From: a virus
Lineage: Duplodnaviria; Heunggongvirae; Uroviricota; Caudoviricetes
IMG/VR virus record: IMGVR_UViG_2531839233_000013
DNA length: 6,506 bases
Reading direction: 5' to 3' (one strand)
Below, in pieces: positions 1 through 6,506 of the stretch (its first letter is position 1; each line of letters opens with the position of its first letter). The position numbers and the translations under genes were made by a program. The notes beneath the pieces are model-generated. The model was not told the DNA's origin, ran no database searches, and saw nothing but the letters and a program-made list of their open reading frames with translations.

Positions 1-26
1 TTACCGGAATTGAAGCAGTTTTTACG

Positions 27-581
27 TCAAAAAGCAATAACTTTTTTCTCTATACCAAAAGCCATAACCATTGGTTTGTACAAAATAAATTCTGCCACCT
101 TTAGCCAATGCTCAATGCGTCTTTCACAGGTTCTTAAACTCCATTCCGGATGTGCATCATTCAGCAATTCAGCCATTTTGCGCTTAGTCATCCCCCGCCC
201 CACATAACGCTGACTCAGAACATTGAGCAGCCCGGGATAACCTGCCAGTACTTCACCAATAACCCTGTCGATTATTAACGCCTCTGAATCGGTACAATGC
301 ACCAGCCAGCTTTTTTGCTTGCCGTTGATCATATCCCGCAAAAAAGCCTCAAGTTTAGGTTTGTCCAGACCTGCTTTTTTCATCCTCCGGAGCGCCTCGT
401 TAATTGCCGTTTTTGTCAGCTTTTTAGAGGTCAGCAACTGGTTGAACATATTTCCCGTCTTACCGCCGCCAATATACGACCAGCGCCCCCACATACGTAG
501 TTTCCCCTGAATCCAGACACTTTCCAGCGTGGTGAGACGAAGGTGCTCTCCGCTTTTTCCTGTGTTCGTTGGGTAAATCAT
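27..581 (-). CDS. Phage late-gene antitermination protein Q-like (quuD / phage-82 type), 184 aa from the preferred start
   Basis: The ORF track gives 224 aa from an ATG at 701, but the in-frame ATG at 579-581 (MIYPTNTG...) overlaps the stop of the upstream gene as ATGA and has AAGGA about 7 nt upstream. The protein has the pattern I recall for DLP12 QuuD-type Q proteins (LRMWGRW, LTSKK, EALRRMKK, LLNVLSQRYVGRGMT) and sits where Q sits in lambdoid nin-Q regions. The stop is TGA at 27-29. Family assignment is from memory. Confidence 0.6.
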   Translation of the reverse strand: MIYPTNTGKSGEHLRLTTLESVWIQGKLRMWGRWSYIGGGKTGNMFNQLLTSKKLTKTAINEALRRMKKAGLDKPKLEAFLRDMINGKQKSWLVHCTDSEALIIDRVIGEVLAGYPGLLNVLSQRYVGRGMTKRKMAELLNDAHPEWSLRTCERRIEHWLKVAEFILYKPMVMAFGIEKKVIAF

Positions 582-868
582 AAATAACCGTCCTTTCTCC
601 AGATCTCTTGTGTGCGAAAAACACCTTCTGCATGCATCAGGCGCAATTCTTCTTTGGTGTAATCGCTGGTTTTTACTCTCCCGTCGATTAAATCGTGGCA
701 TGAGTTACAGGCAATCGCTGCCTGCATATCGTGTGGCTTTATCGCTGTTCCGCACGTTCCCGCCAGCCTGTAATGCGCCAGCACAGAGGTTTCGGGATTG
801 TGATTGCAGTAGCCAGGGATTCTGATCTGGCATATCTGGCCTTTAGCCGCTTTACGTAAATTCACCAT
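578..868 (-). CDS. ybcO: YbcO-like putative nuclease (DUF1364 family), 96 aa
   Basis: The translation MVNLRKAAKGQICQIRIPGYCNHNPETSVLAHYRLAGTCGTAIKPHDMQAAIACNSCHDLIDGR... is nearly colinear with E. coli DLP12 YbcO as I recall it, including the conserved Cys/His cluster. Its ATG at 866-868 overlaps the stop of the upstream gene (TAATG), with GGAG about 10 nt upstream. Confidence 0.8.
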   Translation of the reverse strand: MVNLRKAAKGQICQIRIPGYCNHNPETSVLAHYRLAGTCGTAIKPHDMQAAIACNSCHDLIDGRVKTSDYTKEELRLMHAEGVFRTQEIWRKDGYL

Positions 869-1467
869 TACGCAAACTCCAGTAGTTGTGCGGCCACATT
901 TTCAACTTCCTCCTGAGAGGAGAATTTACGGAACAGAATCCAGTTCCACAGCACATTCAGTACAGATTTATAAACCTGCTGAAACTCGACTTCGTCCATA
1001 TTCGCAAAAGCGATGGATTTTGCCCGACGCCCACGGCTACCGTCCGGATAAATATGCTCGGTGTAAAATCCGGCCTGAATGGTTACCCACTCGCGGAAAG
1101 CCTCAAACGACTTTAGCAACGCCGTATCCCGGGTTCTACGAGTCGCAACGGTGTTAAGGTATTGCTCTGCGGCATCACTCAGGGCTGGCGTGTGTTCCCG
1201 ACCAACTGATTCGCACAGGTAATCAACGAAACCAGACAGCAGTTCTCGTTCGCGAGGCGTGATCGCCCCACCGACCGGAGTCCAGTAATCGAATCCCAGT
1301 TGCAGGAGTTTGAAAAAACGCTTGTGGAATGCGTAGTTACGCACACGCTTAAAATCTGCGTGTATCCACTCACCTATTTTGATTTGATGCAGAAAATCGC
1401 AACTCTCCGGCGTCGCCGGGAGAAGTAAACCAGAAGAAGTTTGTTTGACCAGTTGTATATGCGCCAT
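868..1467 (-). CDS. Phage protein, DUF1367-like, 199 aa
   Basis: A clean 199-aa ORF, translationally coupled to the ybcO-like gene downstream. Its size and its position immediately before DUF1364/YbcO match the DUF1367 proteins of lambdoid prophages. The family name is from memory and has not been verified. Confidence 0.55.
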   Translation of the reverse strand: MAHIQLVKQTSSGLLLPATPESCDFLHQIKIGEWIHADFKRVRNYAFHKRFFKLLQLGFDYWTPVGGAITPRERELLSGFVDYLCESVGREHTPALSDAAEQYLNTVATRRTRDTALLKSFEAFREWVTIQAGFYTEHIYPDGSRGRRAKSIAFANMDEVEFQQVYKSVLNVLWNWILFRKFSSQEEVENVAAQLLEFA

Positions 1468-1886
1468 TTCTCAATCTCTCGATGGCGCAGTGCAGCAGAT
1501 GCCAGTTGTTCAAGCTAGCACGCAAATTGTAAACCAGAATGCCAGGAAAAAACAAAACCCGCCGAAGCTGGTTGTGTGCGGTTGCGTTGAAGTCTCCTAG
1601 CCAAAGAGTAGCGGTGACCACTCCCCGCCGATAATCTTAGTTGTTTAATTTCGTAAGCTAACTAGGCTAAAAGCTCTCTGTTGTCTGCCTGTTGTACAAT
1701 TAACAAAATGAACAACGAACTAGATATACCAACGCCAGAATGGTGCAACAAATCCCAAACAACACAGCAATGCAACAATAACATATGTTATTTTCCTCTC
1801 ACGGGATTCAGTCCTGAATTCTCATAAAGCTAATCTTTTTTTAAAAACATACTGTTAGATCACATGCACTTTCTTTCTTAACATCG

Positions 1887-1914
1887 TTGACTTCGCATGC
1901 GAAGCGTTTAAAAT
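1887..1914 (+). promoter_or_regulatory. Candidate sigma70 promoter for the ATPase operon: -35 TTGACT (1887-1892), 16-nt spacer, -10 TAAAAT (1909-1914)
   Basis: Hexamers are read directly from the sequence, 52 nt upstream of the ATG at 1967; AGAGAG at 1955-1960 is a plausible RBS. A perfect 14-bp palindrome CTTCGCATGCGAAG (1891-1904) overlaps the -35 and spacer. Confidence 0.4.
1891..1904. promoter_or_regulatory. Perfect 14-bp palindrome CTTCGCATGCGAAG, candidate operator in the ATPase-operon promoter
   Basis: The sequence equals its own reverse complement and lies between the -35 and -10 elements. Confidence 0.35.
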
Positions 1915-1966
1915 CAACAATTTGCACTTAAGGTATTTATTTTCCCAAACACATAGAGAGTAAATT

Positions 1967-3358
1967 ATGACTGAGAACACGACTCCAACAGCAGACTTTA
2001 GTCCTAGTAAAAGATTTTTTGTAAGTATGCTAACTCGAGATATCGACTTAAACGATGCCATACTTGATCTGCTTGATAACTGCGTCGATGGGGCTTTACG
2101 TACAATAAAAGACACAAAAAAAACTTCAAAACCATATGAAGGATTTTATGCGAAACTTACGATTAATAAAGATGTCTTTATTATAGAAGACAATTGCGGA
2201 GGTATCCCTAAAAGCTTCCGAGAATATGCTTTTAAAATGGGACGACCCCATCAAAAAGAAGAAGAAAATGAAGGCACCGTTGGCGTCTATGGTATTGGTA
2301 TGAAAAGAGCCATTTTTAAAATGGGTAGAGATTGCTCAATACAATCGAATAATCCCGATGGCGCATTCACTGTAGATATAACACCTGATTGGATCGATGG
2401 TGATGGTTGGAAAATACCGATGCACGAGAGTGACTATGATAACAAAAATCCAACAGGCACAACTATAGAGATAAAAAAACTCCATTCTAATGTGGCACAA
2501 AAATTTAATGAGAGCACATATCTTACTGATCTCTTTTTACAGATAAAACACTCATTGTCATTTATTATTCAAAAAGGATTTAAAATAGAATTAAATGGAG
2601 TTGTTGTTGAACATAATCCGATTAACATCATAACTGATCATTCTAAAATAGAACCATACATATATAAAGCTAAAATAGACGATGTTGATATCGATTTAGT
2701 TGTTGGCTTCTATAAAAATTTAGAAGATGACAATGATGATGTTTTAGAAAAAAGGAGTTCTGATGATGCTGGATGGACTGTCATTTGCAATGACCGCGTT
2801 GTTCTATATTGTGATAAGACACATCTCACAGGTTGGGGCTTTGCTAATGTACCAAGGTTTCATACCCAATTTATAGCAATTTCTGGGGTTGTTCGCTTTA
2901 CCAGTAAAAACCCAGAAAAATTACCAATAACAACAACGAAACGAGGTGTCGATCTTAGTTCTACATTGTACAATGATGTACGAAATAAAATGATTGAAGG
3001 GATGATGCATTTTATTCGATTCACCAATCAGTGGAAAGGTGAGCATCTTGAAGAAGGGAAAAAATTACTTAAGTCAGCTCAGTCACATGAAGCTCAATCT
3101 TTATTTGAAATTACCCCACAATCAACTCCAGAAGATAAAAAAAATAACTGGTCCAACCCTAATAGAAACAAAAATGAGTGGCGATATACACCTAAGCTGC
3201 CTACCCCAGTAAAAAAAAGCTCTACTGTACGAATAATCTTCACCAGAGAGAAAGAAGATGTTAAAATTTTATCTAAATATTTCTTTGGACATGAAGATGC
3301 TAGCGCTTCTGATGTGGGGATGCAATGCTTTGATACGGTGATTGAAGAGGTGAAGTGA
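1967..3358 (+). CDS. GHKL-superfamily ATPase (MutL/MORC/Hsp90-like Bergerat fold), 463 aa
   Basis: All four Bergerat-fold motifs are present in order: N-box D34-L-L-D-N38-C-V-D41-G-A (compare MutL ELVENSLDAGA and MORC ELxDN), G1 box I-E-D75-N-C-G-G79-I (compare MutL DNGCGI), G2 box G106-V-Y-G109-I-G111, and G164-T-T-I-E-I (compare MutL GTTV). The roughly 260 C-terminal residues are unassigned. Stop is TGA at 3356-3358. Confidence 0.8.
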   Translation: MTENTTPTADFSPSKRFFVSMLTRDIDLNDAILDLLDNCVDGALRTIKDTKKTSKPYEGFYAKLTINKDVFIIEDNCGGIPKSFREYAFKMGRPHQKEEENEGTVGVYGIGMKRAIFKMGRDCSIQSNNPDGAFTVDITPDWIDGDGWKIPMHESDYDNKNPTGTTIEIKKLHSNVAQKFNESTYLTDLFLQIKHSLSFIIQKGFKIELNGVVVEHNPINIITDHSKIEPYIYKAKIDDVDIDLVVGFYKNLEDDNDDVLEKRSSDDAGWTVICNDRVVLYCDKTHLTGWGFANVPRFHTQFIAISGVVRFTSKNPEKLPITTTKRGVDLSSTLYNDVRNKMIEGMMHFIRFTNQWKGEHLEEGKKLLKSAQSHEAQSLFEITPQSTPEDKKNNWSNPNRNKNEWRYTPKLPTPVKKSSTVRIIFTREKEDVKILSKYFFGHEDASASDVGMQCFDTVIEEVK

Positions 3359-4347
3359 TGTCTGGACAATACATTCCCTATCACTTAAGGCATAATAAGT
3401 CTATTGATAGAGAGATTTTTCTCGAAAGCCTAAACCTCTTAAGCAAAAGACTAAATATTCAAGAATATACATATATAGGTTTTGGTGGTCCGATGCTTGA
3501 AGATTTTAGAATCATGCATAATCGTATCGCTCTTTCTGATATGATTTCTCTCGAAGAACAAGAGTCTACTCACATCAGACAAAAATATAATTTGCCTTAT
3601 AATTGTATTGATTGTAAGCTAATATCAGCTCATGACTTTATTCTTGATTATAGTTTTTCTAAACCATCAATAACATGGTTAGACTATGCCTCCCCGAAAA
3701 AAATACAAACGGATCTAGATGATATACACTTACTAAGTACTAAAGTAAGCTCTTTTGATATTTTGAAGGTCACCTTCCCCATAAATCCTAGTTCTTATTA
3801 CCAACGTAGAGTTGGAGAAAGTTTAGATATTTTTAAAGAAGCTTTTATTAATTCATTAAAATCATTGCTTGGGAAAAAGTATCTTGATTTTAATCTTCAG
3901 ATATCAAATGCAGATCTTTCAGATCGTAAGATTAAAGCTCTTTTAATACGAATTATTACAAACGCTTTTAGATCAGCAATAGAACGTGGTCTTTCAGGAC
4001 GTAAGGATAAGATTCAGTATTACCCATTATCCTTAAATCAATATAATGATGGCAGTCATACCATGTTGACAATATCAGGTTTTTTCTCCTCAGAACAAGA
4101 ATATATAGAGTTATCTAAGGCATGCGACCTTTCTAACTGGCAATTTTATTCAACAAATTGGGAAGACGTGCAAGAAATAGCAATACCAACACTAACAATT
4201 AAAGAAAAGATAAATTTAGATAGTAAACTGCCTGATAAAGAAGCATATCAGGCAGCCGCTGAAGAGTTCTCTTTAAACGAAAATGAACGGGATAACTATT
4301 ATAAATACTATAGGTTATACCCTAACTTCCAAAGAATTATGGTTTAA
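3358..4347 (+). CDS. Hypothetical protein, 329 aa, translationally coupled partner of the GHKL ATPase
   Basis: A long ORF with the same AT-rich composition as the ATPase gene. The ATG at 3358 overlaps the ATPase stop (TGATG), with a GAGG core at 3347-3350 about 7 nt upstream; the track's GTG at 3355 is an alternative start. No transmembrane stretch and no motif I can assign. Stop is TAA at 4345-4347. Confidence 0.7.
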   Translation: MSGQYIPYHLRHNKSIDREIFLESLNLLSKRLNIQEYTYIGFGGPMLEDFRIMHNRIALSDMISLEEQESTHIRQKYNLPYNCIDCKLISAHDFILDYSFSKPSITWLDYASPKKIQTDLDDIHLLSTKVSSFDILKVTFPINPSSYYQRRVGESLDIFKEAFINSLKSLLGKKYLDFNLQISNADLSDRKIKALLIRIITNAFRSAIERGLSGRKDKIQYYPLSLNQYNDGSHTMLTISGFFSSEQEYIELSKACDLSNWQFYSTNWEDVQEIAIPTLTIKEKINLDSKLPDKEAYQAAAEEFSLNENERDNYYKYYRLYPNFQRIMV

Positions 4348-5466
4348 ATATTCGGGCTGTACTCTTTTATTTAATAAATTGTACAGCCCCTTTAATATAT
4401 ATTCAGCAACTATTGGTGACACGCTATTTCCTATTTGTCTGAAACTATGCCATTTAGTTACATGAAAGCGAAACCAATCAGGGAAGCCTTGTAATCTAGC
4501 AGCTTCTCTTGGTGTAATCACTCTTGGATGATAAGGGTGGATCGGCCTGACGGCTTGAAAGCTTCCTTTATCTCTAGCGGTTCCCGCCCTTAAAGTCGGG
4601 CAAAAACCATTTGGATCTAATCTTGTAGATCTTGAAATTTTATCAGTTTCCCCAAAAGATAAGGAAGCATAACGCTCTTGGACGATTTTGCTATGTAATG
4701 TTCCGGTACATCCAGATATGATATTATTTTTTAACTTAGCGATCGATTCTGTATCACCAACATTCCGAGGGATCTGCCCCCATAATTTTTCATAAAATCC
4801 CCCTTTTCGATCTTTTTTAATTGTTCGCCAACTCTCAGAGTCTGATTGCCAATTGGCATCGATAATATCTGGTAATCCATACAAAGCATCTTTTACAGTA
4901 ACCGGATCAATCATTTTAGGCATAAATACTTCATCTGAAATATCAAGCTTCAATGATTTTTTTACACCGATAAAAAAATATCTAGTTCGAATAGTTGGAG
5001 CACCATAATCAGATGCTTTTACCTTGATGGGATCAAGAATATCATAATCACCGCTAACCAAATTAAATGCTTTATTTCTAATGCCAGAATATTTCTCTTG
5101 CATAATACCTGGAACATTTTCTGCCAAAAAGAATAATGGCTGTAATTCTGATACTAAACGGTAGAAATGCATGTAAAGCTGATTCCTGCTATCATCAGGA
5201 TTCCCCTTGCCTATTGAACTAAATCCTTGGCACGGAGGACCGCCAATAATACCATCTATGGGCATATCGTTTTTAAAAAAACCCTTAATTATTTCTGCAT
5301 TTAGTAAAGAAACATCTTCTTGGACGTGCAAACTTCTTGGAAAATTAATTGCGTGAGTATTAATAGCATGTTGATCAATTTCAACTGCCATTTTAACATC
5401 AAATCCAGCACGTGCAGCACCAAGACTTAGACCTCCAACGCCAGAAAACAAATCTATTACATTCAT
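4315..5466 (-). CDS. DNA (cytosine-5)-methyltransferase, Dcm-type, 383 aa
   Basis: Canonical C5-MTase motifs: motif I D-L-F7-S-G-V-G-G12 (AdoMet binding), motif IV G-G-P-P78-C79-Q-G-F-S (catalytic Cys), motif VI F-F-L-A-E116-N-V, motif VIII P-T-I-R-T-R-Y-F-F-I-G, motif X R-Q-I-G-N-S-V-S-P. The variable target-recognition region lies between VIII and IX. Confidence 0.92.
   Translation of the reverse strand: MNVIDLFSGVGGLSLGAARAGFDVKMAVEIDQHAINTHAINFPRSLHVQEDVSLLNAEIIKGFFKNDMPIDGIIGGPPCQGFSSIGKGNPDDSRNQLYMHFYRLVSELQPLFFLAENVPGIMQEKYSGIRNKAFNLVSGDYDILDPIKVKASDYGAPTIRTRYFFIGVKKSLKLDISDEVFMPKMIDPVTVKDALYGLPDIIDANWQSDSESWRTIKKDRKGGFYEKLWGQIPRNVGDTESIAKLKNNIISGCTGTLHSKIVQERYASLSFGETDKISRSTRLDPNGFCPTLRAGTARDKGSFQAVRPIHPYHPRVITPREAARLQGFPDWFRFHVTKWHSFRQIGNSVSPIVAEYILKGLYNLLNKRVQPEYLNHNSLEVRV
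4354..4400 (+). terminator. Candidate intrinsic terminator for the ATPase-partner operon
   Basis: A perfect 9-bp inverted repeat GGGCTGTAC (4354-4362) / GTACAGCCC (4381-4389) with an 18-nt AT-rich loop, followed by CTTTAATATAT. It starts 7 nt after the partner stop and lies inside the 3' coding end of the convergent methyltransferase gene. The loop is longer than in a textbook terminator. Confidence 0.35.
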
Positions 5467-5498
5467 ATAGTTGCAACGTCTCTTATTAGTTTCTATGT

Positions 5499-5528
5499 AT
5501 TATAACACAACTGTTCTTGATGTTTTAA
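5499..5528 (-). promoter_or_regulatory. Candidate promoter for the methyltransferase with extended -10 (TGTTATAAT on the minus strand)
   Basis: Plus-strand ATTATAACA at 5499-5507 reads TGTTATAAT on the minus strand, about 33 nt upstream of the ATG at 5466. The -35 is weak (best TTAAAA-like), which is usual for extended -10 promoters. Confidence 0.4.
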
Positions 5529-5728
5529 CCCCATAAGATAACCTCATAAAGGCTATCCCTTGAAAATACCGGATCGCATAAATTTAATCTTTCAAAACTA
5601 CTTGTCTATTAATCGAGCAATTTAAGGTTGTTTTAGTCATGTCGATACCGACATAGTTAACTAAACCCATTTCATCGTCCAACAAATGGGGGTAATACAC
5701 TTTGATTTATAGTCGGGTGGGTTTTTCT

Positions 5729-5764
5729 CTATCTGCCTTTGGTGTTCATGCCCAAGGCAGATAG
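5729..5764. repeat. Near-perfect 13-bp inverted repeat CTATCTGCCTT(T)GG ... CC(C)AAGGCAGATAG with a ~9-nt spacer, at the right island/backbone transition
   Basis: Read directly from the sequence. No U-tract follows on either strand, so it is not a typical intrinsic terminator. Confidence 0.5.
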
Positions 5765-5897
5765 CCTCAAGCACCCGCAGCAATTCTACTTAACTATCCT
5801 TTTCCCGCAAACCGTTTTTATCCCCAGCGGCAAATCGAATACACAACCAGCACCACCGCCATTACTGTTCCTACATTTGCGAATGCTTCAGGCCAGG

Positions 5898-6293
5898 TCA
5901 TTGATTCACCTTCTGCTCAATATTTTTAAGGTCATTTTCCGCATACAGTATTGCAGTTCTTGCTGCCCGCAACCGTGCTTTGGTGTTCTTTTCTTCACGC
6001 TCGAGGCTGGCAACAGATTCTCGGAGCTGATCGTGTCTGTTATGAAGCTGTCTAATCTCTCTCACCACAGCCTCACCATCGTTCGCACACCGCAGAACAT
6101 ACTGAAAAGGGTCCACAACACATCCGCACTGCAAGCACAGGATAACGTGATCCTGTTCATGAACCTCAATGGCCCGATGCTTACAGCTCTGTTGTGTGTA
6201 GTTTTTTCTGCCAGTTACTGTAATGTTCAGCAGCTTCTCTTCATCGCGCTTTGGCTGCACCAGTGTGATGATATTATCGCCTTCATTTTCCAT
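5898..6293 (-). CDS. Phage hypothetical protein, 131 aa, with a Cys/His cluster and a charged C-terminal helix
   Basis: The ATG at 6291-6293 has a strong RBS (AGGAGGT about 7 nt upstream) and overlaps the upstream stop as ATGA; the track's longer 156-aa start at 6368 lacks this support. The sequence contains CKHRAIEVHEQDHVILCLQCGC and an R/E/K-rich tail. Backbone-like G+C. Confidence 0.55.
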   Translation of the reverse strand: MENEGDNIITLVQPKRDEEKLLNITVTGRKNYTQQSCKHRAIEVHEQDHVILCLQCGCVVDPFQYVLRCANDGEAVVREIRQLHNRHDQLRESVASLEREEKNTKARLRAARTAILYAENDLKNIEQKVNQ

Positions 6294-6478
6294 CAGTTCA
6301 CCTCCTGCGGCGGTTCTGGTAGCGGCATCCAGTGTGACGGTTTCCACGACGCACCAGGAATTATCCACCCATCATTAGCGTCAGGATGCCCCGGGATGTA
6401 AGTCGCCCACTTCATTCGCCAGTCACCTTTCCTGTCAAACTCCACGGCAACAAGAACGGCTGTTTTGGTATCCGGCAT
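6293..6478 (-). CDS. Phage hypothetical protein, at least 61 aa, possibly 5'-incomplete
   Basis: The ORF is translationally coupled to the downstream gene (ATGA at 6293). The reading frame stays open upstream of the ATG at 6478 to the window edge at 6506, so the true start may lie outside the window. Confidence 0.45.
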   Translation of the reverse strand: MPDTKTAVLVAVEFDRKGDWRMKWATYIPGHPDANDGWIIPGASWKPSHWMPLPEPPQEVN

Positions 6479-6506
6479 TCGCTCACTACAACTTATCCAA
6501 CCATCC

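Follow-up and report, generated by a model that had tools for sequence, protein, structure and literature searches.

What does a block of AT-rich DNA with three genes of its own contribute to the lambdoid prophage that carries it? The question is raised by a stretch of 6,506 nucleotides, here called the window, from the Caudoviricetes record IMGVR_UViG_2531839233_000013, which covers the nin/Q region of a lambdoid prophage. In this block, genes for a MORC-like ATPase, a protein of the PF20553 family and a C5 DNA cytosine methyltransferase form a cassette. The block is horizontally acquired foreign cargo, lying within a broken hok/sok locus of an Sp10/Rac-like prophage, with the replication genes on one side and the DUF1367-YbcO-Q module on the other. 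Its anatomy, its foreign origin and the hotspot that it occupies are, taken together, well supported and can be stated with high confidence. The best overall explanation, which we regard as reasonably probable, is that the cargo in the broken hok/sok locus is an immunity module based on methylation, akin to restriction-modification and of benefit to the lysogen.

How foreign is the block? Sliding G+C content is 0.47-0.55 up to about position 1600, 0.29-0.41 over about 1650-5700 and 0.44-0.51 beyond. The homology breakpoints lie at 1590/1591 and 5718/5719, and the island between them has a G+C content of 0.349 against 0.486 in its flanks (z = 10.8). At third codon positions (GC3), the three island genes have a G+C content of 0.25-0.27 and the flanking genes one of 0.47-0.53. 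An earlier, sequence-only reading of this DNA had described an AT-rich moron at 1650-5750, with a sharp shift of composition at both ends. The shift is confirmed by a strong discontinuity in both sliding G+C and GC3, and the coordinates proposed then lie within about 60 and 30 bases of the breakpoints.

A query with the left flank (the DUF1367 gene and the intergenic sequence up to 2000) finds 2,645 complete E. coli genomes; of all 5,426 complete genomes of this species, 172-173 carry the island. Its copies (n = 172) are all at least 99.9% identical, single-copy, chromosomal and at the same place; no DNA copy was found in the plasmid collection and no DNA-level copy in the phage collection. 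The statement of the sequence-only reading that an integrase, a transposase and a clear target-site duplication are absent holds: neither enzyme is encoded in the window according to the open reading frame (ORF) list and Pfam, searches for terminal inverted repeats or a target-site duplication gave only short matches at chance level, and the window has no tRNA integration site. The block shares with phage morons its absence from relatives, its atypical composition and promoter-like sites of its own, and lacks a terminator of its own; the marks of an insertion sequence (IS), transposon or integrative island, namely a transposase or integrase, repeats, a target duplication and a tRNA, are missing.

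Into what was the cargo inserted? The two ends of intact hok loci find counterparts in the window at 1492-1590 and 5719-5823, which places the insertion in hok/sok, and a sok match and a Hok pseudogene agree with this placement. In a related prophage with an intact locus (L004), 318 bp with the mok/hok frames separate the two ends; in the window this hok centre has been replaced, and the distance has grown to 4,128 bp. The right-hand remnant, with the hok promoter and leader, is directed into the methyltransferase gene. The Rfam match to sok (5652-5776; 50.2 bits, E 3e-9) stays under the gathering score of 59, and its well-conserved part stops at 5719; the first ~60 nt of the sok region are strongly conserved, and nearly all of the sok gene as annotated in 933W falls in the replaced part. 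On the left, 1554-1752 matches a second hok type (L096), at 97% over the first 120 nt. The Hok pseudogene on this side lacks a start codon, is frameshifted by a 1-nt deletion and contains a premature stop, and no intact Hok frame is left. Since the body and 3' end on the left and the leader on the right are of different hok types, the remnants come from different hok lineages; and with the promoter and leader on the right and the decayed frame on the other side, the toxin has lost its promoter and is dead.

A second, decayed hok gene makes up the left ~200 bases of the island, which are therefore not cargo. The extent first proposed for the island thus holds for the block and has to be trimmed for the portable unit, delimited below. 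The related claim, that the island interrupts a continuous and translationally coupled operon, is right about the operon: the ends of the Q, YbcO and DUF1367 genes overlap, and the genes are coupled, all on the minus strand. What the cargo interrupts, however, is hok/sok, the usual occupant of the slot.

Acquisition may have occurred by recombination within or near the conserved hok flanks. Homology to other prophages on the DUF1367 side mostly ends at 1516-1519, and the junction sequence TGCCAGTTGTTCAAGCTAGC just upstream of the DUF1367 gene may be a module-boundary (linker) sequence for exchanges. Chromosomal hok loci have reportedly been inactivated by insertion elements, as Pedersen and Gerdes are said to have described in 1999. 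The locus in the window is likewise inactivated by inserted DNA, which here is a promoter-bounded cassette with no transposase or repeats and not an IS. Its likeness to hokW-sokW of Sp5/933W (PMC8621323) lies in the leader and 3' end, which are homologous to the hokW and hokD loci. The Rfam scan of the window gave nothing beyond the sub-threshold sok match and a match to rli31, a Listeria small RNA, on the minus strand inside the PF20553 gene (3819-3920; 27 bits, E 0.41), which is almost certainly due to chance in AT-rich DNA.

What part of the island travels? In a Klebsiella aerogenes prophage (L102), the cassette is found at 79.7% DNA identity over window positions 1880-5528 only, as a convergent trio between lambda-P/DnaT replication genes and DinI/LexA-like/DUF968 genes. 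In an Enterobacter asburiae prophage (L104), the same trio lies at the edge of the prophage, next to umuDC. The portable core is 1880-5528 (3.65 kb; about 4 kb with the non-conserved linker), bounded by two predicted sigma-70 promoters. Promoter-like sites are not enriched overall (19 in total against 17.8 in shuffles), and the two best ones lie directly upstream of the two divergently placed start codons, one on each strand. The TAAAAT hexamer of the predicted ATPase-operon promoter is kept in three relatives, the fourth (L104) having a TATTAT-like, slightly shifted one; the extended -10 of the predicted methyltransferase promoter is conserved in the Klebsiella copy, and the Enterobacter asburiae copy keeps only a loosely similar pair. 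The relatives that conserve these sites have 70-80% DNA identity, and homology ends at both -35 hexamers, on the methyltransferase side at 5528 in the comparison with Klebsiella. Conserved promoter sites at the edges of homology argue that the cassette carries its own promoters. The spacer between the -35 and -10 hexamers of the ATPase promoter holds a 14-bp perfect palindrome, CTTCGCATGCGAAG (1891-1904), whose outer arms CTTC/GAAG are kept in the Klebsiella copy and whose left arm has one base changed (CATC) in another relative (L106); as these arms persist in relatives, it may be an operator for some regulator.

The sequence-only reading had given the island its own promoters and terminator. 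The promoters stand, as two conserved sites at the edges, and the terminator does not: a scan found none between the convergent genes, whose 3' ends overlap by 33 bp (4315-4347), and the terminator-like element at ~1545-1575 belongs to the hok remnant, has a mismatch in its stem and folds no better than shuffles. The convergent overlap recurs in Methylomonas (L008), Enterobacter (L090), Azoarcus (L093) and the Klebsiella prophage, and in most other phyla the genes lie on one strand. Transcripts of the PF20553 and ATPase genes (ECs1954 and ECs1955) have been detected by microarray in growing lysogens of strain Sakai, dropping 2.6-3.2 fold at the growth transition (PMC2241611).

The Pseudomonas phage PfAC20 (L107, 280-3711), a Pf inovirus, has a distant trio of similar gene order beside its repressor and excisionase. 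It consists of an ATPase with 32% identity, a 317-amino-acid ORF (not scanned for PF20553) and a cytosine methyltransferase. Besides the Pf inovirus, no record among 50,697 phage genomes contains the ATPase.

Could the AT-rich genes be ancestral to the phage lineage and have been lost by its relatives? The common position of 172 of 172 E. coli copies speaks for such a history, yet the GC3 of the genes is half that of their neighbours, hok ends flank the block and the locus is intact in many relatives. The cassette also has other neighbours in the Klebsiella and Enterobacter prophages, its distant counterpart resides in an inovirus, and among the genomes that match the left-flank (DUF1367) query, those lacking the cassette outnumber those carrying it about 15-fold. 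Ancestral carriage is contradicted by this evidence and is highly improbable; the block is treated below as acquired cargo.

Is the insertion site a hotspot, as the sequence-only reading had supposed? Thirteen related prophage loci, a sample and not a census, were compared. In these, hok/sok nearly always adjoins DUF1367 (once a DUF968/RusA module), with or without cargo, and the three-gene cassette is absent from all 13, so that carriage of the three genes is not uniform among relatives with DUF1367-YbcO-Q. Some have hok only in the slot. Others hold IetAS (L012, L096), the RmrA gene of RosmerTA (L014), the PD-Lambda-2 component PD-Lambda-2_C (L002, phage Rac-SA53), an Mrr-nSTAND1 protein (L015), IS elements (L098, L099) or plain phage genes (L013, L100, L101). 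In E. coli ISHS7 (L005, 6064-8358), the cargo is a STAND-like P-loop NTPase of the Sll1717 family with a weak PDC-M36A match; it has replaced the 5' half of hok and is a second independent case of cargo breaking hok. The cargo breakpoints vary between relatives. Together with the excess of left-flank genomes (2,645 against 172-173 with the island), these observations support the view that the slot beside or inside hok/sok, upstream of DUF1367-YbcO-Q, is a variable defence-cargo hotspot whose cargo is mostly anti-phage.

The lambda genes rexAB, sieB, bor and lom are lambdoid morons; like these and like P2/P4 cargo, the cassette has promoters of its own (predicted) and an atypical composition. 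As in the P2/P4 prophage hotspots (Rousset 2022, PMC9122126; Vassallo 2022, PMC9519451), a fixed position holds interchangeable anti-phage cargo; the slot described here differs in lying in Rac/Sp10-like lambdoid prophages, next to or inside hok/sok. A literature search found no description of the hok/DUF1367 slot, and the Tai paper proved to have no relevance to it.

Which proteins does the cassette encode? In the ATPase, the motifs DLLDNCVDG, DNCGGI and GxYGIGMK are invariant in 25 homologues, the ATP-binding motifs are intact, and an S5-fold transducer domain follows the GHKL domain. Among its structural matches, MORC proteins are much closer than MutL. The PF20553 protein has a class I S-adenosylmethionine (SAM)-methyltransferase fold with an invariant SAM site; K-D-K-E (2'-O-methylase) and DPPY (amino-methylase) motifs were not convincing by eye. 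Among the 120 matches listed of the 353 found by profile search, all are single-domain proteins of 177-346 amino acids, full length being ~320-345. The cytosine methyltransferase matches PDB entry 3g7u (E 1e-254), and its catalytic motifs (FxGxG, PCQ, ENV, GNSV) are complete in the translation. Its strongest PADLOC match is the generic MTase_II; those to DISARM (DrmMII) and Druantia (DruM) are weaker but significant. M.BatI (PMC8936443) is unrelated. The C-terminal pieces of the ATPase and the PF20553 protein show no extra Pfam domain at E up to 10, and NCBIfam and PDB sequence searches with these two proteins gave nothing useful. Foldseek against viral structures found generic methyltransferase similarity only (TM at most 0.41).

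Do the three genes belong together elsewhere? Database searches return over 5,400 homologues of the ATPase, spread across many bacterial phyla and reaching one archaeal genome. Gene linkage was followed in 80 genomic loci from cyanobacteria, Chloroflexota, Acidobacteriota, Planctomycetota, Firmicutes, Proteobacteria, one archaeon and others. The ATPase is followed by PF20553 in 76 of these, and a C5 methyltransferase is adjacent in 68, mostly upstream on the same strand and convergent in 7. A gene for Vsr is present in 32 loci, and none is found in the window. In Serratia (L010/L011) and in three further loci (L023, L036, L044), a second, larger HATPase_c_3 protein (537-608 amino acids) lies beside the pair, usually with the methylase, and in Serratia an HNH_2 protein is also nearby; these loci resemble the MORC + paraMORC1 operons described in 2008.

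Vsr also bears on a possible role in repair, in which the MORC-like ATPase would be a MutL analogue and, with the PF20553 protein, would aid very-short-patch repair of the T:G mismatches that arise from deaminated 5-methylcytosine of the linked methylase. Such a role is very unlikely, as Vsr is absent from the window and from 48 of the 80 loci, the ATPase is structurally much closer to MORC than to MutL, a SAM-methyltransferase fold has no obvious repair role, and phages carry the cassette as cargo, here within a defence hotspot.

With which known systems does the cargo compare? In 2008, Iyer, Abhiman and Aravind (PMC2292703) predicted that MORC/paraMORC ATPases work alongside Dcm and Vsr in restriction-modification operons. 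The cassette resembles these operons in linking a GHKL + S5 ATPase to a C5 methylase, often with Vsr, and in being mobile and sporadic across phyla. The operons set out there also contain a helicase or a nuclease (with a restriction-endonuclease fold, HNH, or a fused nuclease/TIR), whereas the cassette has neither, and it adds a constant methyltransferase-fold partner, PF20553, of which we found no mention in the main text of that paper. The cargo best fits this predicted class of restriction-modification operon, minus the nuclease or helicase.

Type II restriction-modification systems with a Dcm-type methylase and Vsr offer a second comparison. Here too, a C5 methylase that looks active stands in tight linkage with candidate restriction genes, the genes converge from separate promoters, and Vsr is often found with them; in contrast, the cassette has no recognisable endonuclease, and its candidate effector consists of two subunits and should depend on ATP. 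In BREX, DISARM and Hma, a methyltransferase marks self and ATPase-containing partners give immunity by a poorly understood route. The cassette likewise combines a methyltransferase with an ATPase and has no classical endonuclease, but the proteins of these systems match neither the ATPase nor the PF20553 protein, and with three genes it is much smaller. A GHKL ATPase is also found in VcSduA / paraMORC3 (Shedu type, N-terminal GHKL), an experimentally validated anti-phage protein (PMC12137116); VcSduA has a fused DUF4263 PD-(D/E)xK nuclease and needs no methylase, whereas the ATPase in the window has no such domain.

Is the cassette, then, a defence system? Four lines of argument somewhat favour a defence role: the slot's other occupants, the linkage to methylase and Vsr that self-marking systems typically show, the presence of the cassette in temperate phages unrelated to each other, and what was predicted for MORC relatives in 2008 (PMC2292703). 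A restriction-like logic is more tentative and falls somewhat short of probable: the methyltransferase would mark resident DNA, and the ATPase-PF20553 pair would act on incoming DNA without the mark. Phage early-right transcription and the surviving hok promoter run in the direction of the methylase gene and antisense to the ATPase operon. This orientation suggests methylase-first expression on induction, and the methylase would also be made at that time, marking progeny phage DNA.

Several observations weigh against an immunity module of this kind. Neither the ATPase nor the PF20553 protein has a match at E of at most 0.01 among 5,027 PADLOC models (PADLOC-DB 2.0), and neither has a recognisable nuclease or helicase domain. 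In the literature searched, PF20553 is unnamed and no experiment on the ECs1953-1955 cassette was found. The E. coli copies are all near-identical, so that patterns of gene decay are uninformative, and the hotspot was sampled rather than surveyed. In 12 of the 80 loci, nearly all cyanobacterial, the ATPase-PF20553 pair has no adjacent methylase, which would be unusual if the pair were lethal without one; in 3 of the 80, the ATPase is directly followed by the methylase and PF20553 is missing. The missing nuclease and the methylase-less cyanobacterial pairs weaken the restriction-like logic in particular.

The cyanobacterial loci of either type are L017, L018, L024, L027, L031, L033, L039, L049, L058, L068 and L082; L057, L069 and L095. 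In such loci, the two methyltransferase-fold proteins look like alternatives. Might the module modify DNA and restrict nothing, protecting phage DNA or tuning host expression, with the ATPase and the PF20553 protein loading the methylase or adding a second SAM-dependent mark? Orphan methylases are common in phages. The cassette encodes two methyltransferase-fold proteins and no nuclease, its methylase is co-oriented with early-right transcription and the hok promoter, and at some cyanobacterial loci the ATPase is accompanied by just one methyltransferase-fold protein, as if the two were alternatives. Set against this, most copies of the module sit in the chromosomes of free-living bacteria from many phyla, its tight operon with Vsr is conserved as in self-marking systems, the slot otherwise holds bona fide defence systems, and no DNA methylase is known to need an ATP-driven clamp. 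On balance, we consider a module confined to modification unlikely, and an immunity module of the restriction-modification kind remains the explanation that we prefer.

If the cassette does confer immunity, is a nuclease needed? The MORC-like ATPase and the PF20553 protein might form the nuclease-free effector of a new type of epigenetic immunity, in which a MORC clamp would sense the absence of 5-methylcytosine and inactivate foreign DNA without cutting it. Inactivation would proceed by entrapment, by compaction or by a second SAM-dependent modification carried out by the PF20553 protein. We give this version a low probability.

The cargo corresponds to ECs1953-1955 of prophage Sp10 in E. coli O157:H7 Sakai, to which window positions 1-5901 are 99.8% identical, and many other O157:H7 and O111:H8 genomes match this stretch equally well. 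Genes ECs1950-1955 of Sp10 have been reported to be specific to O157:H7 lineage I (PMC1890555). Identity to Sp10-type genomes ends at 5901, 933W-type Shiga toxin (Stx) phages cover 5719-6506 at 99.2%, and no single complete genome in the collection searched covers the whole window. These partial matches, Sp10-type up to 5901 and 933W-type from 5719 on, mark the source prophage as yet another mosaic. The genes of the backbone are listed in Table 1 together with the features discussed above. For the Q-like gene, the longest frame (27-701) would overlap YbcO by 124 nt, and the start annotated at 581 reduces this to the usual 4 nt.

Table 1. Features of the window, with position, strand and supporting evidence.
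Feature	Position	Strand	Evidence or remark
MORC-like GHKL + S5 ATPase gene, 463 amino acids (ECs1955)	1967-3358	+	PF13589 (HATPase_c_3), 2.9e-9
PF20553 ('Methyltransf_35') protein gene, 329 amino acids (ECs1954)	3358-4347	+	Start overlaps stop of GHKL gene (TGATG)
C5 DNA cytosine methyltransferase gene, 383 amino acids (ECs1953)	4315-5466	-	Pfam PF00145, 2.6e-61 (residues 1-361); PADLOC MTase_II, 2e-98
Predicted promoter of the GHKL-PF20553 operon, TTGACT-16-TAAAAT	1887-1914	+	Scan; TTGAC invariant in four relatives
Predicted methyltransferase promoter, TTAAAA-18-TATAAT, TG upstream	5499-5528	-	Best-scoring site of the scan
hok mRNA locus 3' end (fold-back and terminator region), remnant	1492-1590	-	90% identity to stretch just downstream of hokD in L004; 97% to hok variant locus of L096
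Hok/Gef-family pseudogene, second hok type	1685-1789	-	tblastn with the 41-amino-acid Hok/Gef of L096, 45.7% identity, E 8e-7; DNA alignment, translations
hok promoter and 5' leader of hok mRNA (sok-target region), remnant	5719-5823	-	99% to hokW/sokW of 933W; 89% to hokD in L004
20-nt junction sequence TGCCAGTTGTTCAAGCTAGC	1500-1519		17 of 20 alignment columns invariant; found in every prophage compared, irrespective of what lies beyond
Late antiterminator Q-like gene (DUF1133 / Phage_antitermQ), backbone	27-581	-	Pfam PF06576, 1.7e-105; PF06530, 7e-8; annotated ECs_1958
YbcO (DUF1364) putative nuclease gene, backbone	578-868	-	Pfam PF07102, 5e-43
DUF1367 / NinB-Orf-like gene, backbone	868-1467	-	Pfam PF07105, 6e-98; phrog_319
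Phage early-region ORF (phrog_1621), backbone	5898-6368	-	phrog_1621, 7.5e-60; homologue of 933W L0139
DUF551 ORF, backbone	6293-6478	-	Pfam PF04448, 7e-15

What does the locus add to the biology of these prophages? The moron itself is of an ordinary kind, and its sequence was publicly available before (Sp10 of O157:H7 Sakai, S-loop 93). The hok/sok interval upstream of DUF1367-YbcO-Q behaves as a defence-cargo slot, and such slots have been productive for finding immunity systems. In this slot, a compact and widespread three-gene module joins a MORC-type ATPase and a SAM-methyltransferase-fold protein to a cytosine methylase. With a tractable E. coli strain and a crystal structure of the methylase at hand, the 2008 prediction on bacterial relatives of MORC is directly testable. 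If the nuclease-free version were true, the module would be a bacterial counterpart, and possibly a forerunner, of the coupling between MORC proteins and DNA methylation in the genome defence of eukaryotes.

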